From Minisyncoccota bacterium (GTDB lineage Bacteria; Patescibacteriota; Minisyncoccia; Phycocordibacterales; JAGLPS01): a stretch of 64,000 nucleotides of DNA. Position numbers and translations under genes: made by a program. Below, one piece after another: positions 1-40,888 of this stretch. The notes beneath the pieces are model-generated. The model worked only from the letters and a program-made list of their open reading frames with translations, did not search any database and was not told where the DNA came from. How positions within the stretch are numbered: the stretch's first letter is position 1; every line of letters starts with the position of its first letter. The stretch is taken from contig JAGLPS010000019.1 in NCBI GenBank assembly GCA_023137185.1, positions 309-64,308 of the forward strand. The letters run 5' to 3'.

Positions 1-3000
1 TTATAATTTCTCTTATTATCGCACCTTTTGGTAGTTTTTTCTCAACAGATTCAAGATTGATGTCATTAGTGTTCTTTGAAACAGATATTATTTTTGTCCT
101 ATCTCTTGATGGTTCATAAATAGCGATGAGATTGTCCATTACGGTTTTTAAATGGGAAATAAAGATTAAAGACTTTCCTGTTCTTGGGTGTTTCGCGTAA
201 TGGTACCTTGCGAACGCATTTTCATTATACACCGCCTTCGTCGTTGTTCCGTACGTGAGCAAATTCAGAGAAATTAAAGACTGGCGTTTCTTTTCAGCCA
301 AATCATAACTAACTGCAAGGGTGTTCCCCCACTCGTCCGTTATCGTGGTGGATTTATCTCCAAACAAAACCACGGGTTCTTGCGTTGTTTCGTCAATGCC
401 CGTTATTTCTATGCCGTTCTTTTCCATAGAAAAACCGATTCTCGCTTCGGGAGGAATGTCATCAACAGGAATCGGGGGTAAGGTTACAGTGCCTCCGATC
501 ACGGGCTCAAGCGAAATGTCCGTTTCTCCGTCATTGTCAAAATCCACGTCAAGAGAAGACGCGTTCTCTATGGTGCCAAGAGGAAAAGATATTGACGCTT
601 TCGTTGTGGTCGCAACTGGTATTGATTCAAACATAGTCGCGGCAATAATAACGCCATTGGAAGATTCTTCTATTTCAAGGTCAAAGGACCCGCTCGCGAA
701 TCCCGAAAGATTTATAACAGGAGCAGCTTGTTTTGGTATGGAGATATATTGGACTTCTCCAAAGTGTTTATACCTTCCCCCGGGTATAGCCGATGTCGTT
801 GAACTAAGTGTGTTTCCAAAACTGTCTACAGCCGTCATACCCAAAGGAGAGTGAAGATAGAAATACAAGCGGTTGTCGGATTCTCCCACCGATGGCTGGT
901 AATCGGTAACAAATTGCGGAGTGGTAGTCGTCCCCTCAATTTTGTTTTTTATGAGCTCAACTAGCTGTGGAATTTCTAAAATGTTTTTGTGCTCCCTTGG
1001 AACATGAATACCACTAGATAAAACATTGTTGTAACTATTCAAATTCACCCACCACCTTTTAACGTTCGGGCTTGAAGTGCTCATAGCAAGAGCGCTCGGC
1101 GTAACAACTATCCCATCGCCGTCAACAACAAGCTTAGGTTTATAATCCCACACAAGTTCGCTTTCCTCACAGAAAAAGTTATCCCCAATCGGCAAATAAG
1201 AAACGCATTTATTTTTCCCTTTATAAACTATTGACGACAACGTCTCCTCGCCCCAGCCGGCAATTTCGTAAATATCAATACGCGAAGGCGGAATAAAATC
1301 GTCTATTTCATTATGCGCGCTATCGGCGTACGCGAGCAATTGTTCGTTCAATACTTCCGGCGATGACAAATCGGAAAATAGCGGGGATTCCCTGCCATCG
1401 CCCTCCTCGCCTTTTAGAAAACTCCAAAGTTCCTCCTTCGTATCTATTGTATCGCCGTATTCAGCCACAGCATCGTCTATTGGTTCGTACCCGCTACCTT
1501 CAAACCGTATGGGAGGCGTGGTTATTCCTCCGCCTTCACCCAGCCAATACGAAGCGGATGGTAAAAGAGGATACGCGCCCGGCATATTCTGCGCAAACTC
1601 GCGCGCCGTGCTCCTTGAAACCACCGCGTCAAACCAGTCTTTAGGCAAACCCTGGTCAAAGCCGTGAAGAAGCGCGCCTATCGCCATCGGCGTTCCCGCT
1701 TGCGGAACCGCCACCAAAAATACGTTGTCAATTTTTTCAAGAAGCGGGCTGTTTTCATTTTCAAGTTTTTTCAGCAAATACTTTACTACCAGTCCCCCGT
1801 TTGAATGAGCAACAATAGACACTTTTCCCGTCTTTGACGTTTCAGCGAGCCGATTGAGTTCCTGAATAATGTAAGGAGTGCTAGTCGCCCGCAAATCTCC
1901 AGAATAGTAAATTTTTTCGTCCACTTTGTTCCCATAAGAGAGAATGTCATTAAGCGAGAGCCGCCAATCGTATGGCACGGTCGAATAATCGGCGATAATA
2001 CGCTCGTCGTTTTTCCAAGTTTCCAAATCGGAAAGAAACGACTTGTAAATATTCCAAAGAGGAATAAACCCAAACGCGCGCACCTCGCCAATCACGTCCT
2101 TTGTGTAAATATCAAAACGCGCGCTTTGTCCGTTTTCATCCAAAAAGAGCGCTTCAACATCGCCGTTGTTATTAGGTTCCCAAAGAATATCCGTGCCGCC
2201 GCTATAGTCGGGTTTGTACAAGCGACTTGCTTCAAGTCCCGGCAAAAACAGAACACTTGAACAACATTCCGGCGCGAGAATATTAAGAGGATACTCGGTA
2301 AGCCATGGGTCAAAATCAACGTCGCCGACAACTCCGTCCCCCGTGCCCAAAGGGTTCACGGGATTTCTCGGTCCGGACGCATCTCCCCACCAATTATTGG
2401 TGGCATCCGCGATATCAGGGTTTGCGGACGGCAAACTGGAGTAAAAATTGACGCCGTAGTTTGAGTTTCCGGCGATAGAACTGTCATGAATTTCAAGAAT
2501 CGGTCGGATGTCGCAAGAAAAAACTCCGGCGCAGACGCCTAGCACACCATCAAAATTATTCGTAATGGTCGTGCTCGCGATACTCGCCGAGCCACCTGTT
2601 AACTTCACACCTGCGATAATAAAATCTTGGATCACGGCGTCTGCTAATTCAAGATGTCCTCGCTCGCCGCTTCCGGCGCTGACCTCAATTCCAACTCTTC
2701 CACCCGAAAGAAACACGCGATTCGCACTCGCGATCGCGTTGACACTTATGTTGATTGCCAATCCCGACCCCGCGTTGGTAACAGTTATATTTTCAAATGT
2801 CGCGGTCGCGTTTCCGACTGTAATTCCCGAGCCACCAGTAAGATTTTCAATAGTAATATCGGAGAACAAGCAGGTTCCACCCCCGCCACAGGACAAGCCG
2901 TCGTTAACATTATTCAACGTAATATTTTTAAATTCATACGTTCCATTATTCGCGATAACAGAACGAACTGAATCAAGAAAATGCGTGTCTTCAAAAACAG

Positions 3001-3499
3001 TATCCGCGCGCGTAGCCCGCAAACCGTCATTACTGTATTTCCACACAAGCCCTTTAATTTTATGGGGACCGCTATATTTAGACAGGTCAACCAACCATTC
3101 GTCATTCGGCGCCCCTTCCGAAAAACCATCTCCATTTGTATCACCACCCGCGCTGTCATCCTTGAGCGAAGTAAAAAATACAGGATTTTCGGTAGCGCCA
3201 TTCACGATTAAGACGCCGGTCTGACGGACATACATTCTGGCATTATCCCCAAACTTCACAATCGCGCCTTCTTCAATGGTAAGAGTGGCACCGTCTTGAA
3301 CGCTTACGATAGTAGAGTCGCTTATGTAATACGGACTGTCCTCGGCATTCCACACAGTATCTGATGTAATAGTTGCGCCAGAGACGTCTGTTGCTGCCCG
3401 CACGGCAATCGGCAACAGCAATATAAGTGCGAAAACAGCCAATTTCAAAAACCATATATTTGTGCGTTTTTTTATGTATTTCTTGGTATGTTTGAGCAT
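1..3499 (-). CDS. Large secreted protein, 3'-truncated by the window edge (more than 1160 codons visible). It has an N-terminal signal peptide, parallel beta-helix-like repeats, and a C-terminal-half alpha/beta-hydrolase (lipase/esterase) domain with a GxSxG nucleophile elbow (VAHSNGG).
   Basis: I translated the minus strand by hand from the ATG at 3497-3499 and found no stop codon down to position 1. The frame is absent from the ORF track, apparently because its stop lies outside the window. The start reads MLKHTKKYIKKRTNIWFLKLAVFALILLLPIAVRA, a clear signal peptide. Beta-helix-like motifs include NITVTNAGSGLAINISV, and SIVAHSNGGLVVKYLL marks the nucleophile elbow. The plus-strand ORFs in this span (321..854, 2508..3224) are low-complexity shadows. 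Confidence 0.6.
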   Translation of the reverse strand, partial: MLKHTKKYIKKRTNIWFLKLAVFALILLLPIAVRAATDVSGATITSDTVWNAEDSPYYISDSTIVSVQDGATLTIEEGAIVKFGDNARMYVRQTGVLIVNGATENPVFFTSLKDDSAGGDTNGDGFSEGAPNDEWLVDLSKYSGPHKIKGLVWKYSNDGLRATRADTVFEDTHFLDSVRSVIANNGTYEFKNITLNNVNDGLSCGGGGTCLFSDITIENLTGGSGITVGNATATFENITVTNAGSGLAINISVNAIASANRVFLSGGRVGIEVSAGSGERGHLELADAVIQDFIIAGVKLTGGSASIASTTITNNFDGVLGVCAGVFSCDIRPILEIHDSSIAGNSNYGVNFYSSLPSANPDIADATNNWWGDASGPRNPVNPLGTGDGVVGDVDFDPWLTEYPLNILAPECCSSVLFLPGLEASRLYKPDYSGGTDILWEPNNNGDVEALFLDENGQSARFDIYTKDVIGEVRAFGFIPLWNIYKSFLSDLETWKNDERIIADYSTVPYDWRLSLNDILSYGNKVDEKIYYSGDLRATSTPYIIQELNRLAETSKTGKVSIVAHSNGGLVVKYLLKKLENENSPLLEKIDNVFLVAVPQAGTPMAIGALLHGFDQGLPKDWFDAVVSRSTAREFAQNMPGAYPLLPSASYWLGEGGGITTPPIRFEGSGYEPIDDAVAEYGDTIDTKEELWSFLKGEEGDGRESPLFSDLSSPEVLNEQLLAYADSAHNEIDDFIPPSRIDIYEIAGWGEETLSSIVYKGKNKCVSYLPIGDNFFCEESELVWDYKPKLVVDGDGIVVTPSALAMSTSSPNVKRWWVNLNSYNNVLSSGIHVPREHKNILEIPQLVELIKNKIEGTTTTPQFVTDYQPSVGESDNRLYFYLHSPLGMTAVDSFGNTLSSTTSAIPGGRYKHFGEVQYISIPKQAAPVINLSGFASGSFDLEIEESSNGVIIAATMFESIPVATTTKASISFPLGTIENASSLDVDFDNDGETDISLEPVIGGTVTLPPIPVDDIPPEARIGFSMEKNGIEITGIDETTQEPVVLFGDKSTTITDEWGNTLAVSYDLAEKKRQSLISLNLLTYGTTTKAVYNENAFARYHYAKHPRTGKSLIFISHLKTVMDNLIAIYEPSRDRTKIISVSKNTNDINLESVEKKLPKGAIIREII

Positions 3500-4430: not shown

Positions 4431-4460
4431 ATTTCATCTGCCCTTCAAAGCAAAGCTTTT

Positions 4461-4669
4461 CAGGACATTGGGTTGCATTTGTCCCTTGCCCTTCGTCGAA
4501 GACTTCTCAAGGACTGCGTCGCTTCGCTTCTTTCCCTGCCCTTCGTCGAGGACTCCTCAGGACATTAGATTGCATTTGTCCCCTGCCCTTCGTCGAGGAC
4601 TCCTCATCAGGACTGCATCGCTTCGCTTCTTTCCCTGCCCTTCGTCGAGGACTCCTCAGGACACTGAAT
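4461..4669. repeat. Tandem repeat, about 99 bp x 2.1. Each unit contains two copies of a 28-bp core (CTGCCCTTCGTCGAGGACTCCTCAGGAC) separated by two alternating 21-22-bp spacers.
   Basis: Read directly from the sequence. The spacers themselves recur, so this is not CRISPR-like. Confidence 0.8.
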
Positions 4670-4702
4670 TTTTATAGTCGCTTCGCTCGTTAAAAATTCG
4701 TG

Positions 4703-4773
4703 CTGCGGGACTTGGACTCGAACCAAGATACTCGCCTTCAAAGGGCGATGTCCTACCATTAGACGATCCCGCA
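4703..4773 (-). tRNA. tRNA-Gln (anticodon UUG)
   Basis: A cloverleaf folds by hand. The acceptor stem is U1-A72 and the discriminator is G73 (Gln identity elements). The D-arm is GUCU/GGAC, the anticodon stem UCGCC/GGCGA, the anticodon loop CUUUGAA and the T-arm CUUGG-UUCGAGU-CCAAG. No CCA is encoded. Confidence 0.75.
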
Positions 4774-8790: not shown

Positions 8791-8893
8791 AAGGCAAACC
8801 AGTAAAAGTGGAGAAAGAAATTTCTCCACTTTTTTTATGCAAAGAAAACCCGTCAATTATACCTAGATTGAACCTCGATAACAAAGCACTCCG

Positions 8894-17479: not shown

Positions 17480-19708
17480 TTGGTATCAATGACTAAGTTG
17501 TTAATTGTAGAATCACCGGCAAAAGCCAAAACCATCACAAAGTATCTTGATGATACATATACCGTTACCGCGTCAGTCGGGCACATAAGAGACTTGCCAA
17601 AAAGCAATAAGAAAGCCGTGGATATAGAACACGGTTTTGTTCCACATTACGAAATTTCCAAAGGAAAAGAGAAAGTTATTTCGGAAATAAAAAGTCTCGC
17701 AAAAAAAGCAGAGGAGGTGCTTCTCGCGACCGACCCCGACCGCGAAGGAGAAGCGATCGCGTGGCATATAATTCAAGCCTGCGATTTAGAAAATCAAAAG
17801 TTAAAAGTCAAAAGGATTGTTTTTCACGAAATTACCAAAGACGCCGTCAACGAAGCATTAAAGCATCCCCGAGATATTGATAACGACTTGAAGGAAGCTC
17901 AGGAGGCCCGCCGTGTTCTTGACCGCCTCGTCGGCTACGACTTGTCGGGACTTATCTGGAAAAAAGTTAGATATGGACTTTCCGCGGGACGAGTGCAATC
18001 CCCCGCTTTGCGAATCCTCTCCGAACGCGAGCGCGAAATCGCGGCTTTTATTCCCCAGAAATATTGGGTTATTGACGCGGACACAGAAACTGATAAAAAA
18101 GAAAAAATTACTTTTACCTGCGCGAAAGAACCCACTGAAGAAAAAGAAGCGGAAGAGATTTTGAAACGAGGAAAAGAGGCGCAATGGAAAATTGTTGATG
18201 TTAAAGAAACAAAAGGGAAACGTGCACCGAAAGCTCCTTTTATCACTTCAACTCTCCAACAAGCCGCAAGTTCCCGTCTTGGATTTTCGCCATCACGCGC
18301 GATGATGCTTGCCCAGAAACTTTATGAAGCGGGATTCATTACATATATGCGCACCGATAGCACTACCATAAGTGGTTCTATTGCCACTCATATCGCGGAA
18401 GTTATCAAAAAAGAGTTCGGAGAAAAATTATACACGCCGCGTGTATATAAAACAAAATCAAAAAACGCGCAAGAAGCGCACGAAGCAATACGTCCAACTG
18501 ATGTACTGAAGAGGTTTGCTGGACACAATGACGCGGAGAAAGCGCTCTACCAGCTTATCTGGGAAAGAACTGTCGCCTCTCAAATGGCAGACGCTATTGT
18601 TTTGAAAACCCGCGTCATCGCGGAAGGAGGAAAGGAAAATCCTGAGTTTACGGCAAATGGTTCGCGAATTATTTCACCCGGCTGGCTCCTTGCTGACCCG
18701 CGCGCGCGAGGCGAAGACGTAGAACTGCCGAAAGTGCAAGCTCAAGACAATCTCTCTCTGCTTAAAATACGCTCTGAAGAAAAAGAAACGCTTCCCCCGC
18801 CTCGCTATTCAGAGGCCGGCCTCGTAAAAGAGCTTGAAAAGCGCGGTATTGGTCGCCCTTCCACTTACGCGGCTATCATAAAAACCATTCAGGAAAGAGG
18901 CTACGTTGAGAAAATAAACCGCAGTCTCAAAGTAACAGACACAGGCGAAGTAGTAAGCTCTTTTCTAGAAAATAATTTCGCAAAATACGTAAGCGATACA
19001 TTTACCGCCGAGATGGAAAACAAGCTTGACGCAATCGCCGATGGACAAGCCACATATACAAAAATACTTGAAGACTTTTATGCCCCATTCGCCAAGGATG
19101 TGGAATCAAAACAGGACACGGAAAAAATCACGACACTGGGAGACGCTGAACCTCATCACAAATGTCCTTTGTGCGGAGGAGATATGATTATAAAACTCGG
19201 ACGAACCGGAAAGTTTTTAAGTTGTAAAAAATTCCCAGAATGCAAAGGCGCGCGAACACTGGAAGGAGAAGCAATGGAAGGACCAAAAGAAACTGGAGAA
19301 AACTGTCCCGAATGCGCAAAAAGCCTGCCTGTTGAGAAACAAGGAAAACTTGTAGAGCGTATGGGACGATTCGGAAAATTTATCGCTTGTAGCCGTTATC
19401 CCAAATGTAAGTACGTCAGGAAAGACCCCGCTCAAGAAGAAAAGGCAAAAACAGGAGTTAAGTGCCCCGAATGCGCAAAAAGCCTGCCTGCCGATAAGCA
19501 AGGTGAAATTATGGAGCGTCGCGGACGATTTGGACCTTTTTTCAGTTGCAGCAACTACCCTGATTGCCGTTTTAATATAAAATCAAAACCGACAGGAAAA
19601 TTGTGCGAGGATTGCGGTTCTCTAATGATGGAAGGCACGAAGACTATCCCTGAACGTTGTAGCAACAAAAACTGTCCAAATCACAATCCTCATAAAAAAA
19701 TAAAGTAA
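17480..19708 (+). CDS. topA: DNA topoisomerase I with C-terminal zinc-ribbon repeats
   Basis: TOPRIM TDPDREGEAIAWHI, and multiple CPxC...C Zn ribbons (CPLCGGDM, CPECAKS x2, CEDCGS). The start may be Met-4 (MTKLL). Confidence 0.9.
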   Translation: MVSMTKLLIVESPAKAKTITKYLDDTYTVTASVGHIRDLPKSNKKAVDIEHGFVPHYEISKGKEKVISEIKSLAKKAEEVLLATDPDREGEAIAWHIIQACDLENQKLKVKRIVFHEITKDAVNEALKHPRDIDNDLKEAQEARRVLDRLVGYDLSGLIWKKVRYGLSAGRVQSPALRILSEREREIAAFIPQKYWVIDADTETDKKEKITFTCAKEPTEEKEAEEILKRGKEAQWKIVDVKETKGKRAPKAPFITSTLQQAASSRLGFSPSRAMMLAQKLYEAGFITYMRTDSTTISGSIATHIAEVIKKEFGEKLYTPRVYKTKSKNAQEAHEAIRPTDVLKRFAGHNDAEKALYQLIWERTVASQMADAIVLKTRVIAEGGKENPEFTANGSRIISPGWLLADPRARGEDVELPKVQAQDNLSLLKIRSEEKETLPPPRYSEAGLVKELEKRGIGRPSTYAAIIKTIQERGYVEKINRSLKVTDTGEVVSSFLENNFAKYVSDTFTAEMENKLDAIADGQATYTKILEDFYAPFAKDVESKQDTEKITTLGDAEPHHKCPLCGGDMIIKLGRTGKFLSCKKFPECKGARTLEGEAMEGPKETGENCPECAKSLPVEKQGKLVERMGRFGKFIACSRYPKCKYVRKDPAQEEKAKTGVKCPECAKSLPADKQGEIMERRGRFGPFFSCSNYPDCRFNIKSKPTGKLCEDCGSLMMEGTKTIPERCSNKNCPNHNPHKKIK

Positions 19709-19986
19709 TATTAAAGCACGCAAACTGCTTTGCGTGCGCAACTAGTCTGAGTGAGCCGGAGCGATGTTTCTGTAGCAACAGAAACCGCGAGGCGGGTGAG
19801 AAATGCTGGGAGCATTTCGCAAGACCTTTTGAGACAATTTCTGAATTGTCCAAAAGGTGTACAGACTCTGTAAGAGTCACAAGTCATTCAAGCTCCGTCG
19901 AGCTTGAATGACTTGTGACCGAAGACTATCCCTGAACGTTGTAGCAACAAAAACTGCCCAAATCACAATCCTCATAAAAAAAACTA
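19709..19986 (+). mobile_element. 211-bp non-coding structured element inserted immediately after the topA stop. It is followed by a near-identical duplicate of the last ~66 bp of topA, carrying its own in-frame stop (PHKKN*).
   Basis: topA 19642..19708 is repeated at 19920..19986 with 2 mismatches plus an altered terminal codon. The element begins with the hairpin GCACGCAAACTGCTTTGCGTGC. It ends with CCAAAAGGTGTACAGACTCTGTAAGAGTC plus a 20-bp-stem hairpin. The same 3' motif ends the tRNA-linked elements. Confidence 0.5.
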
Positions 19987-20398
19987 AAAGCCAAAAGCTG
20001 TCTTGGGAGCTTGTCCGCCAAACTTTATTTTGACGAGCGAGTATGCCATGAAAGCTTCCGAGCTTTCATGGCATACAAGCCTGCCTGCCGGCATAGGCAA
20101 GGTCAAGGTCAAGTCAAACTTATAGGTCAATACCGCCCCGCAGGCGGGGCGGGGCGATTGGACAAGCAAAGCGGGCGAGTACCGATAAGACCTGTGGACA
20201 CGGCGTGTCCACAGGTCTTTGTTACTCCCATACTCCCATATTACCCTGCGGTTTTTGCCGCAGGGACATATATTACCTAAACTTAAAATACGATGGGAAG
20301 GGAAAATTTGAGACAATGTGCTTTTTATCCACTTATATTCCATTTTTCCATAAAGTTAGGCGAGTTGCTTTTTTGCCCGCCTCTCCTAAAATAGAGAT

Positions 20399-23318: not shown

Positions 23319-23638
23319 CAAATTGAGCAAAGCGAAAGCTGTGCCGAGGGAGGCGCAGCTTTCTTTCTGAAGAAAGCGTCGCGCGGACTTGAAGCCCGAT
23401 TGAGATTTTCTTGAATCCAAAGGATGAAAAGAAAATCCAATTGGGGTACTGTTCCTGTAAGGAACAGTACCCCAACACAAGTAGTCAAGGCGAAGTTGGG
23501 CGCGGCAAAATCGTGTGGGGAAAGGCTTGAGGGTTGAGGCGCGAATACTTGGAGCGCCGAAAAATCTTGTGAGATTTTTTCTGAAAAATCCACAAGGTGT
23601 ACAGAACCTGTAAGATTCAAGTCCCTCCCTCGGCACCA
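23319..23638 (+). mobile_element. tRNA-3'-end-linked element. It comprises module B (about 130 bp), the hairpin GGGGTACTGTTCC-TGTAA-GGAACAGTACCCC, a partial tRNA-Leu copy (anticodon-3' half to T-stem), the GGTGTACAGAACCTGTAAG motif, and a duplicate of the tRNA 3' end with CCA (ATTCAAGTCCCTCCCTCGGCACCA).
   Basis: It starts exactly after the discriminator A. Module B is shared with 30473..30630 and 40615..40777. Confidence 0.5.
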
Positions 23639-30280: not shown

Positions 30281-30818
30281 CAAAATCAAATTTCAGCAGG
30301 TTCTCCTGCTGAAATTTGTATTTCTAGTAGCACACGCAGTGTGCGATGGGATTTGAAAGATTTTGCGGGGCTACCCATTCAGCAGAATGGGTCGCAAAAT
30401 CAGGGCTGAGAAATTTTTTACTGCGGCGGCAGTAAAAAATGTTCTTGGCCAAATCCCTCCCTGCGCACAGATTGAGCAAAGCGAGAGCTGTGGCTGGGAG
30501 GCGCAGCTTTTTTTCTGAAGAAAGCGTTGCGCGGATTTGAAAACCTTTTGAGGTTTTTTGGAGTCAAAGACGAACAAAAAATCCAAAAGGTGTACAGAAA
30601 CTGTAAGTTTCAAATCCCTCCCTGCGCACAAAATCAAATTTCAGCAGGTTCTCCTGCTGAAATTTGTATTTCTAGTAGCACACGCAGTGTGCGATGGGAT
30701 TTGAAAGATTTTGCGGGGTTACCCATTCAGCAGAATGGGTCGCAAAATCAGGGCTGAGAAATTTTTTACTGCGGCAGCAGTAAAAAATGTTCTCGGCCAA
30801 GTCCCTCAGCGCGCACAA
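30281..30818 (+). mobile_element. Three tandem tRNA-3'-end-linked elements. Module A (30281..30472), module B (30473..30630) and module A' (30631..30818) each end in a duplicate of the tRNA-Tyr 3' end (AAATCCCTCCCTGCGCA; degenerate in the third).
   Basis: Module A and A' are about 97% identical over about 190 bp and are built from four near-perfect hairpins. Module B matches the elements at the Leu-CAA and Leu-UAG loci and ends CCAAAAGGTGTACAGAAACTGTAAGTTTC. Confidence 0.55.
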
Positions 30819-39630: not shown

Positions 39631-39895
39631 GAAAACTGGTTGCAGTTTTCGTAGAGGACTAGGGAGTACGTAAACTGCTTTACGTGCGTCGGGAATCGAA
39701 AGGTGGAGGCACGTTTTTCTAGCAAGAAAAACAGCCGAGCCAAGGTCATGGAAATGTGTCTGCGACGGCAGACAAATTATCCCTGACCGATTCCCGCCCA
39801 GGCCTCCAGAAAACCGACTGTGGTTTTCGCAGAGGATTGGGAGCATGTAAACTGCTTTATATTCATAGGCTTTGTACCTTTTGTTTTTAAGGCAA
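39631..39895 (+). mobile_element. tRNA-3'-end-linked element. It starts with the hairpin GAAAACTGGTTGCAGTTTTC and a CGTAAACTGCTTTACG hairpin, and ends with a duplicate of the tRNA-Cys 3' end with CCA (39789..39808). A second truncated copy follows (39809..39895).
   Basis: GATTCCCGCCCAGGCCTCCA is repeated. The CUGC-loop hairpin is shared with the topA-linked element. Confidence 0.45.
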
Positions 39896-40274: not shown

Positions 40275-40532
40275 CTCGCGAAGCGAGTCCGAGACGGAGG
40301 CTGACGAGCCGAGTCGGGCTCGCGCAAAAATTCAGCAGAATTTTATGTGTGAGGACACAAAGACTTTGCGAAGCGATAGGACGTCCAGAGAAAGCAAACT
40401 GCTTTGCTTTCGTCAGGATTCGAAGTTGCCTAACAAGCTAAAAACTAATAAACTACAAGCTGTGGTTATGGGCAGACGGGAAAATTCAAGTAGTACAGCA
40501 AAGCTGACCACAGGATAAATCCCGTACAAAGT

Positions 40533-40614
40533 GCTGGGGTGGCGAAATTGGTAGACGCGCTAGTCTTAGGAACTAGTGGAGCAATCCATGGGAGTTCAAG
40601 TCTCCCCCCCAGCA
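40533..40614 (+). tRNA. tRNA-Leu (anticodon UAG), class II
   Basis: GCUGGGG-UG-GCGAAAUUGGUAGACGC, anticodon arm CUAGU-CUUAGGA-ACUAG, long variable arm, T-arm GGGAG-UUCAAGU-CUCCC, acceptor CCCCAGC-A. Confidence 0.8.
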
Positions 40615-40777
40615 CAAATTGAGCAAAGCGAAAGCTGTGCCGAGGGAGGCGCAGCTTTCTTTCTGAAGAAAGCGTTGCGCGGACTTGAAGCCCGATTGAG
40701 ATTTTCTTGAATCCGAAGGATGAAAAGAAAATCCAATTGGGATACTGAAACTGTAAGTTTCAAGTCTCCCCCCAGCA
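40615..40777 (+). mobile_element. tRNA-3'-end-linked module B, ending in GATACTGAAACTGTAAGTTTC plus a duplicate of the tRNA-Leu(UAG) 3' end (AAGTCTCCCCCCAGCA)
   Basis: About 95% identical to module B at 23319.. and 30473... The whole tRNA-plus-element unit is bracketed by a 19-bp inverted repeat (40521..40539 and 40772..40790). Confidence 0.5.
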
Positions 40778-40888
40778 CTTTGTACGGGATTTGAAATAAC
40801 TTGACTTTTTTAAATATTTGTGACACTGTTACAAATAGAAGATAACGCTTTTTGAAATCGGTTTTTACATCCTAAAGGAGGGTGCAAA

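Follow-up and report, generated by a model that had tools for sequence, protein, structure and literature searches.

A putative family of small non-coding mobile elements that replace gene ends in Candidate Phyla Radiation bacteria

The window analysed here is a 64-kb chromosomal stretch of a metagenome-assembled genome (MAG) of Candidatus Pacebacteria/Paceibacterota, in the Candidate Phyla Radiation (CPR), and the element in question lies at the 3′ end of its topA gene. This gene, encoding DNA topoisomerase I, occupies positions 17480-19708 of the plus strand in the open reading frame (ORF) list, contains the Pfam domains Topoisom_bac, Toprim and Zn_ribbon_Top1 and, in its current reading, ends in ...PHKKIK*. 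Its product matches a protein from a Ca. Pacebacteria MAG at 100% identity, the next-best TopA reaching 68%. The 3′ part of topA, covering codons T-K-T-I-P-E-R-C-S-N-K-N-C-P-N-H-N-P-H-K-K (copy 1, 19638-19700, plus strand), is repeated directly at 19920-19982 with an identity of 62/63, the sole mismatch being a synonymous change of TGT to TGC. A near-perfect repeat of 63 nt is far above chance. Past the repeat, copy 1 reads ...KKIK* (stop 19706-19708), and copy 2 (19920-19987, plus strand) ends in frame as ...PHKKN* (stop 19985-19987). A preliminary description of this DNA had pointed out the changed gene terminus, which we confirm, and had given the repeat as 66 bp with two substitutions; the substance of that statement stands, and the exact figure becomes 63 nt with one mismatch.

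The copies are separated by 211 nt (19709-19919), in which the hairpins and the motif previously noticed were all found. This spacer is predicted to fold into six hairpins with −106.7 kcal/mol (z = −8.5 versus shuffles); it opens with the hairpin GCACGCAAACTGCTTTGCGTGC (19716-19737) and closes with GGTGTACAGACTCTGTAAGAGTC plus a perfect 20-bp hairpin (19876-19919). The opening hairpin, H1 (GCACGCAAA-CUGC-UUUGCGUGC), is a constant family module (..CAAACUGCUUUG..): among metagenomic loci it is identical after the topA stop in L119, L129 and L131, close variants follow topA in L125, L135 and L165, and it is also present in tRNA-linked copies. Next comes a target-complementary arm (IR-L, CAACUAGUCUGAGUG, 19739-19753), which is P1 in the RNAalifold consensus, where it carries compensatory changes between different targets, and pairs with topA CAC-GA-AGACUA, a stretch that spans the insertion point. 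By fold and alignment, positions 19755-19793 form the 5′ part of module A, GCC-GGA-GCG-hairpin-CGC-GA-GGC, shared by topA elements of other genomes. The following core, module B (19797-19878), reads UGAG-hp1-CGCAAGACCUU-hp2-AAGGUGUACAGACUCUGUAAGAGUC with a C(UGUAA)G hairpin at its end and is matched by models R1 and R2. Since the topA elements of other genomes do not contain module B, it is nested in the window copy, which consists of module A with module B inserted between GGCGGG and GUC. The perfect 20-bp terminal hairpin, hp3 (GUCACAAG...CUUGUGAC, 19876-19919), has the family equivalent GUCGCGAG-hairpin-CUUGUGAC with conserved G.U pairs, and the foot of its helix is the 3′ end of the element. 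All these parts lie on the plus strand. R1, which had the window topA element among its nine seeds, scores it at 128 bits; R2, built without it, gives 43 bits. The element aligns with L002, L007, L009, L046, L047, L051, L077 and L086, the module order being conserved and a copy of the gene 3′ end standing at the close.

The end of topA is a recurrent target. A TopA C-terminus profile retrieved 80 metagenomic topA ends, of which 75 were readable. About 63 of the 75 are empty, the stop codon being followed by a terminator or by the next gene. In ten others an A-type element follows immediately on the stop (L119, L125, L129, L131, L135, L148, L156, L165, L174 and L192), and two (L150 and L160) appear to be element remnants. 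Where the sequence continues, a second topA end starts at a position identical to that in the window: the insertion point falls after the first base of the Thr codon in G-T-K-T-I-P-E-R-C, and the second copy stands directly after ...GUGAC. The two copies of a topA end are 78%-100% identical, and nine of the ten downstream copies retain an intact frame and stop. The comparison of occupied and empty sites that the preliminary description had called for gives approximately 10-12 of 75 ends occupied at the identical codon, with the rest empty. That description had also considered an identical arrangement in all genomes, with no empty sites and no other copies of the motif; the opposite was found on all three counts.

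The nature of the two copies can be read from L165, which is occupied, and L158, L169 and L172, which are empty and have topA genes 85-88% identical to it. Copy 2 of L165, together with its terminator, aligns with the native ends and terminators of the three empty loci, and differs from L158 at about 12 positions, all synonymous (manual alignment reading). Copy 1 is distinct, with approximately 73% identity (manual count) and a different C-terminal tail. Upstream of the boundary, GGGA|CGAA, a 60-nt stretch shows 83% identity, within the background of 83-95%, and no foreign tract is detectable. With copy 2 native and copy 1 foreign, the inserted DNA is therefore a foreign gene end plus the element, placed at a fixed point. 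The comparison shows that the element's own copy completes the gene, with the native end displaced downstream to become a pseudo-end, in agreement with the earlier proposal that the element supplies a replacement gene end. By analogy with L165, copy 1 in the window would be the element-borne replacement end, and copy 2 the displaced native end.

Two other products were rejected on the same locus. Duplication of the target site by staggered cuts (casposon-like or LINE-like) is ruled out at topA by the foreign copy 1 of L165, and a mobile unit made of the element and the downstream copy, placed after an intact gene, is ruled out for L165, where copy 2 and the terminator are native. A further locus, L147, has a foreign-type end as in L156 plus the first hairpin bases, and nothing else of the element, which indicates that the element was lost later and that the tail stayed permanently replaced. 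Such elements may drive the horizontal swapping of gene termini, L147 being an example. TopA tails after the invariant ...NPHK are mosaic among Paceibacteria.

Elements of this kind extend well beyond topA. With up to 3 mismatches allowed, the window has five occurrences of the motif GGTGTACAGNNNCTGTAAG (19856, 23443, 23596, 30589 and 40739), versus 0.14 expected; these shared copies and the R1 and R2 matches bear out the suspected kinship of the topA element with tRNA-linked modules. In a scan of one genome per GTDB species, the motif AAGGTGTACAGANNCTGTAAG was found at at least 116 loci and in at least 116 species genomes. Among the matches listed, nearly all belong to Patescibacteria, of many classes, and three outside this group look like chance. 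Among these same listed matches, a same-strand tRNA gene lies upstream of 82 of 122 cores (median distance 128 nt, 34 anticodons), and an opposite-strand tRNA is nearby in only 2 of 122; the sequence after the motif is that tRNA's own 3′ part, beginning in the T-loop. Together with hits at topA, rplL and a DEAD-box helicase gene, this upholds the targeting of gene 3′ ends suggested in the preliminary description. Both copies at rplL (L007) encode KVTLK*, with six synonymous differences, and those at the helicase gene (L028) encode ALTFIPG* and ALTFIPA*; frame and stop are kept in both copies of each gene. Direct repeats of 19-21 nt flank the tRNA-linked units, the repeat at topA being 63 nt. 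Across 193 tRNA loci, repeat-bounded units measure 104-404 nt, except for one tandem pair of about 800 nt, and contain no ORF. With R2, a covariance model of the core, 130 copies were detected across 100 loci, each about 8 kb long; many genomes therefore have several copies per locus.

Members of the family share a general plan. Copy 1 of the target forms the end of the functional gene and, in tRNA-linked units, is often followed by an intrinsic terminator. H1 has a 9-bp stem with the loop-proximal sequence CAAACUGCUUUG. At tRNA targets the arm comprises an acceptor-5′-like segment before H1, and a T-stem-5′ segment plus an exact complement of the T-loop after it. Module A reads GCC-GGA-GCG-hairpin-CGC-GA-GGC-GGG ... 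GUCGCGAG-hairpin-CUUGUGAC, module B reads (GGUGAG-hp1-CGCAA)GACCUUGAG-hp2-CGAAAGGUGUACAGANNCUGUAAGNNUC, and copy 2 of the target closes the unit. The two modules are found singly or nested; in L125 an A unit lies inside a B2-type unit. Minimal B units with flanking 7-10-nt repeats occur in L014 and L045, and in diverged copies the invariant parts are reduced to GUAC.G and the C(UGUAA)G hairpin. The core also holds a short palindrome, TACAG-N3-CTGTA. A core subclass has an extra 3′ tail, AAGCGUACUCGCGGUC, between the T-loop and T-stem parts of the tRNA copy (L012, L013, L017, L035, L037, L044, L050, L054, L062, L069, L076, L083, L091, L093, L098 and L103); GUACUC of this tail complements GAGUAC in the hp2 loop, which suggests a possible pseudoknot.

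The structure of the element is under selection. In the RNAalifold consensus of nine topA-type (B2) copies (alignment A1), 26 of 46 pairs are compensatory; GCC/GGC of module A changes to GAC/GUC in L046 and L086, and the G.U pairs of hp3 are conserved. In 130 model-aligned cores (A4), 22 of 23 pairs covary, 87.7% of cells are paired versus 65.8% in shuffles, and the covariation score is 0.463 versus 0.136 in shuffles and ≤0.095 in slid controls, figures somewhat inflated by the fitting of the alignment to the model. In an alignment-free check, the free NN positions of the terminal C(UGUAA)G hairpin pair in 117/119 and 118/119 copies.

All subtypes have, immediately 5′ of the conserved modules, a segment that complements the first 9-20 nt of the target. 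Across tRNA species, the T-stem and T-loop positions 57, 59 and 60 covary with the arm, and all nine pairs of the arm-target helix, P1, covary in the 130 copies; arm-target pairing was scored by covariance-model alignment, ungapped scoring being noisy from 1-nt indels. In topA elements, the arm is the complement of their own G-T-K-T-I codons. Manual inspection of L165 and L119 showed 11-12 of 11-12 positions matched between the arm and the left junction, and 9-10 of 11-12, wobbles counted, between the arm and the reconstructed native target. The matched stretch at the left junction includes 2-5 nt of the upstream gene, and thus the arm spans the insertion point. The fold puts the 5′ junction inside the arm helix and the 3′ end at the foot of hp3, so that the two element ends are brought together.

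In the window there are five cores plus A-type units and remnants, and the layout at tRNA genes is an intact gene, a structured spacer of 100-300 nt and a copy of the gene 3′ end. All the following units lie on the plus strand. After tRNA-Leu(CAA) (23320-23638) come a B-type unit, a pseudo-tRNA-Leu fragment with a second core, and a tRNA 3′-end copy (23618-23638). Directly 5′ of this second core, positions 23487-23545 hold a degenerate tRNA-Leu(CAA) body (D-arm, anticodon stem, variable arm and the 5′ strand of the T-stem); the fragment suggests that some target-complementary arms may derive from the 5′ half of a tRNA. A tandem array follows tRNA-Tyr (30282-30817): an A-like unit, a tRNA 3′ copy, a B unit, a tRNA 3′ copy, an A-like unit and a degenerate tRNA 3′ copy. 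It looks like repeated insertion into one site. The A-like unit has 168 nt and the B unit 140 nt, after which the 168-nt unit recurs at 98% identity. After tRNA-Cys (39631-39860), an A-type unit, which shares 67% identity with the topA element's 5′ part, precedes a tRNA 3′-end copy (39788-39808) and a truncated second unit. After tRNA-Leu(UAG) (40616-40779), a B-type unit with its tRNA 3′-end copy is 96% identical to the tRNA-Leu(CAA) unit, and its arm still matches tRNA-Leu(CAA). The 5′ leader and acceptor strand of tRNA-Leu(UAG) (40519-40541) are the reverse complement of the displaced tRNA end and trailer (40769-40791; AAATCCCGTACAAAGTGCTGGGG / CCCCAGCACTTTGTACGGGATTT), and the downstream tRNA copy is therefore the original 3′ end. 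A remnant after tRNA-Lys (40276-40430) has the 5′ part of module A, an H1-type hairpin (GAAAGCAAACTGCTTTGCTTTC) and an arm (CAGGATTCGAA) that complements the T-arm of tRNA-Lys; it lacks a core and a second tRNA copy, and its R1 match is weak (16 bits).

In our view it is very likely that the spacer and the first topA-end copy are one copy of a mobile, gene-end-replacing element of this family. Mobility is backed by the tandem arrays, the nested modules and the 96% identical unit at two tRNA-Leu genes. The element would be a non-autonomous, protein-less mobile insertion, belonging to a family spread across the CPR and composed of a replacement 3′ end, H1, an arm spanning the target, one or two multi-hairpin modules and a terminal hairpin. 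The comparisons show insertion at a single fixed position near the 3′ end of a highly conserved gene: the T-loop in tRNA genes, the Thr codon of GTKTIPERC in topA. For the mechanism, we tentatively favour guided single-strand insertion. The element would be active in folded, single-stranded form, as single-stranded DNA or as RNA transcribed together with the host gene. The arm would select the target by base pairing and would bring the two element ends close to each other. A trans-acting enzyme, encoded by the host or unlinked, would catalyse strand exchange; catalysis by the element itself is less likely. We prefer this mechanism because it accounts for the arm, the covariation, the varied targets and the nesting, and it has precedents in the guide-target pairing of IS200/IS605 and in the guide sequences of introns. 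For the joint reading, a mobile family element together with guided single-strand insertion, we estimate a probability of roughly 60%, which blends the estimates for its two parts. A bolder version is doubtful: these would be a new class of protein-less, folded elements of about 100-300 nt that choose their site by their own arm, inserting either by their own catalysis (ribozyme or deoxyribozyme-like reverse splicing) or through a hijacked housekeeping nucleic-acid enzyme. The spare gene end would neutralise the damage, and the element would amount to a programmable, guide-bearing ‘micro-intron/transposon' endemic to the CPR, driving a horizontal exchange of gene ends.

Several points weigh against the joint reading. 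This MAG has no close relative in the databases, the nearest TopA being 68% identical, and an empty site for the exact window locus is therefore lacking; the window copies are 98% identical, so that the choice of which is foreign leans on other genomes and would hold by analogy. The arm of the tRNA-Leu(UAG) unit is mismatched to its own target; perfect pairing is therefore not needed for an element to persist. At tRNA targets the arm could partly be a relic of the tRNA 5′ half, as the pseudo-tRNA-Leu at 23487-23545 illustrates. Many tRNA-linked copies have a canonical intrinsic terminator between the tRNA and the arm and core, which disfavours obligatory co-transcription as RNA. An excess of G.U over A.C pairs (155 versus 88) weakly suggests that the folding strand is the sense strand, as RNA or single-stranded DNA; this count is biased, being made on alignments fitted to the sense strand. 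The mechanism, with its enzyme, its transcript and any circular or excised intermediate, is conjecture.

Searches for an enzyme and a donor covered the window, related loci and sequence collections. No recombinase, transposase, reverse transcriptase (RT), TnpB or HNH domain was found by Pfam in the window ORFs scanned (50 of about 75 candidates, including all of ≥150 aa). ORF clustering around 119 copies revealed no recurrent mobility-type gene beside the elements, and the clusters look housekeeping. Four loci (L003, L024, L070 and L096) have a free-standing LAGLIDADG-like ORF (about 220 aa, helix-turn-helix at the N-terminus) approximately 0.5-2 kb from elements, with no fixed orientation or position relative to them. 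Among the 193 tRNA loci, no repeat-bounded unit of >404 nt that could be an autonomous parent was seen besides the one tandem pair. The core motif is absent from 2.9 million IMG/VR viral contigs apart from one chance match, and phage and plasmid collections gave no blastn match. The preliminary description had advised looking for a donor on a plasmid, phage or integrative element; the viral, phage and plasmid collections yielded no carrier. A GC-rich 15-mer of module A has at least 120 viral matches, and one of the 80 tested with R1 was real (L201). This locus carries a tandem A-type array with tRNA 3′ copies at 2900-3319, at the end of an IMG/VR contig, and probably represents a piece of CPR chromosome or the flank of a prophage, not a donor. 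The likeness to classic integrase attP behaviour that had been proposed therefore holds for the outcome and fails for the integrase, none being found in the element, the scanned window ORFs or the related loci. Covariation of an RNA-like kind and the target-complementary arm hint at another mechanism.

Known families were sought in the same way. Rfam cmscan over 19500-41000, at the gathering threshold and with E up to 5, returned only tRNAs and chance miRNA-like hairpins, and Rfam 15 gave no intron, ribozyme, HEARO or other family match at permissive E-values up to 5-10. A group I intron (RF00028; P3-P8 core, G-binding site) was rejected for want of an Rfam match over 19500-41000, and a group II intron or retroelement (RF00029, domain V/VI) on the same ground, with no RT in the scanned window ORFs and a length of only 211 nt. 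Against a diversity-generating retroelement (template and variable repeats, TR/VR, at a gene end), the copy differences in L165 and L119 are not adenine-specific and no RT was found. For an IS200/IS605 derivative or a TnpB/IscB guide RNA, the window shows none of the genes concerned and Rfam has no match; the long duplicated target also speaks against it. Compared by eye with canonical dif, the junction bears no convincing resemblance to the dif-like 28-bp site that integrative mobile elements exploiting Xer (IMEX) use, and the dif of this lineage may be another one. Full-text searches of open-access literature turned up no account of such an element family; the only related paper found deals with group I introns at anticodon position 35/36 of CPR tRNAs, a distinct subject (PMC13011429).

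Four other explanations were weighed. The one closest to the integrase idea is a miniature derivative that keeps only the attachment (att) sites, as a cis-mobilisable element, and is acted on by an unlinked tyrosine or serine recombinase or XerC/D on duplex attP and attB, the conserved hairpins being binding sites of the recombinase or of accessory proteins. The layout is that of an integrase product, with a repeat running from a fixed crossover to the gene end, the borne end fused and the native end displaced; the tandem accretion at tRNA-Tyr and the short core palindrome TACAG-N3-CTGTA also fit. Work by Williams in 2002 is said to have recorded crossover in the T-loop as a known integrase sublocation. 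This derivative is nevertheless unlikely, given that the searches above gave no integrase, no recurrent mobility gene beside the elements, no autonomous parent among repeat-bounded units and no viral, phage or plasmid carrier. Moreover, insertion sites differ by target (TT|CGAAT, CA|CGAAG, CT|AAAGT) with a covarying arm, and helix covariation with G.U pairs is unexpected for protein-binding sites in duplex DNA. We regard as slightly less probable an origin by natural transformation and homologous recombination only, with the conserved gene body and the displaced end as homology arms, no site-specific machinery, and the folded core as an RNA with another function, host or selfish. The targets are indeed among the most conserved sequences (tRNA 3′ halves, the invariant TopA GTKTIPERC), and CPR genomes have competence genes, dprA lying two genes 5′ of topA in the window. 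Gene conversion could explain the 96% identical units at two tRNA-Leu genes, and the loss in L147 with the foreign end kept resembles ordinary recombination or deletion. An identical insertion point in about ten diverged genomes, however, fits a fixed cut site better, although one ancient insertion later spread by recombination would look similar. The switch between native and foreign sequence at the boundary is sharp, without a co-converted upstream tract; recombination would also leave the covarying arm without a role and offers no drive for dozens of copies per small genome.

Removal at the RNA level, with an intron-like element that is self-splicing or protein-assisted and whose internal gene-end copy is a fail-safe, seems improbable. 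Like an internal guide sequence, the arm base-pairs across the left junction; the 3′ end lies at a helix foot, modules nest as twintrons do, and group I introns abound in Patescibacteria (PMC13011429). An intact frame and stop remain in nine of the ten displaced topA ends, which recent insertion would also explain. There is, on the other side, no Rfam intron or ribozyme match with E up to 5-10; tRNA ends that were displaced show decay, with 1 nt deleted at 40761-40779 and a degenerate copy at 30798, tandem arrays would require multiple splicings, and terminators stand between tRNA and core. Hardly any weight falls on a non-mobile origin, whether the topA end was duplicated locally long ago or the structure is a conserved terminator or regulator of topA. 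Strong folding and the position at a gene end would fit, but some 63 of 75 topA ends are without the element, the same modules occur at dozens of tRNAs and other genes in >100 genomes, and one copy in L165 is foreign; the empty sites, the wide spread of the motif and that foreign copy refute this origin.

Replacement of the end of a tRNA or protein gene is already known from integrase-type elements and from some mitochondrial endonuclease ORFs. Integrase-type elements (prophages, genomic islands, integrative and conjugative elements (ICEs)) likewise have direct repeats from a fixed point, such as the T-loop, to the gene end, a borne copy that completes the gene, a displaced native end and tandem accretion at a single site. 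The units here differ from them in measuring 100-300 nt, with no ORF and no integrase found nearby, in the lack of any autonomous parent or phage or plasmid carrier found, and in their covarying helices and target-complementary arm. Cis-mobilisable elements (CIMEs) and IMEX also have no recombinase of their own, form arrays at single sites and depend on factors in trans (inferred here). However, an ICE that shares the att of a CIME can be identified, and IMEX have a dif-like site; neither feature was found here. The present elements also have many different target sequences, and in each case the arm of the element matches the target. Mobile endonuclease ORFs of fungal mitochondria, such as ORF360 at atp6 of Allomyces, bring a foreign C-terminus and displace the native one. 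They resemble our elements in the hybrid gene, the insert and the displaced native end that can later be lost (compare L147), and differ by encoding a homing endonuclease as driver, the elements here having no ORF.

Among folded elements, IS200/IS605 and its non-autonomous derivatives (palindrome-associated transposable elements, PATEs) share the use of folded single strands, subterminal hairpins, a short internal guide beside a hairpin that base-pairs with the target and cleavage sites and so selects them, and non-coding derivatives mobilised in trans. Their guide has 4 nt, they do not duplicate a gene end, and TnpA/TnpB are present somewhere; in our case no TnpA/TnpB was seen and no omega- or HEARO-type match in Rfam. 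Group I and II introns (RF00028/RF00029) have an internal guide that pairs with the flank of the insertion site, a preference for conserved genes (tRNA, rRNA), nesting, and RNA structure with covariation. The present elements are far smaller, match no ribozyme family and have no RT or homing endonuclease; splicing is unnecessary for them because they carry a copy of the downstream exon. The combination of 100-300 nt, no coding capacity, a multi-helix core, a target arm, nested modules and CPR-wide abundance is apparently undescribed, being unmatched in Rfam 15 and in the open-access literature searched.

If this reading is right, the CPR, known for its minimal genomes and its scarcity of mobile elements, would harbour an extremely successful non-coding family, with at least six sites in the 64-kb window and multiple copies per 8-kb locus in >100 species. 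Essential genes would receive such elements without harm, and the family would provide a route for horizontal replacement of gene ends. It would also explain partial tRNA copies, long structured spacers after tRNA genes and variable TopA C-termini in CPR annotation. A short target-complementary arm beside a precise insertion would make this a compact natural system, of interest for guided DNA insertion and possibly for engineering. The core (GUAC, then the C(UGUAA)G hairpin) would be a candidate new structured RNA/DNA motif that has no curated family.

The neighbours of topA are housekeeping genes: dprA, a NUDIX gene, relA/spoT, parB and miaA. The rest of the spacer between topA and relA/spoT (19988-20398) is unusually long and dense with further perfect hairpins, for example GTATGCCATGAAAGC...GCTTTCATGGCATAC and AGACCTGTGGACAC...GTGTCCACAGGTCT. 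On the minus strand, at 4460-4670 downstream of tRNA-Gln (4702-4773), there are four tandem repeats of about 50 nt with a period of about 99 nt in pairs; this array differs from the element family and holds hammerhead-like strings (CUGAUGAGGAGUCCUCGACGAAGGGC). A hammerhead was considered for the CUGAUGAG...CGAA strings and dropped, as no Rfam family was found there with E up to 10. Finally, a short palindromic intergenic repeat family, TTTGGACACTNNGTGTCCAAA, is located at 8890, 23699, 36973 and 60766, with weaker copies at 20187 and 31525, and may be a terminator or a small element like the repetitive extragenic palindromic (REP) sequences.

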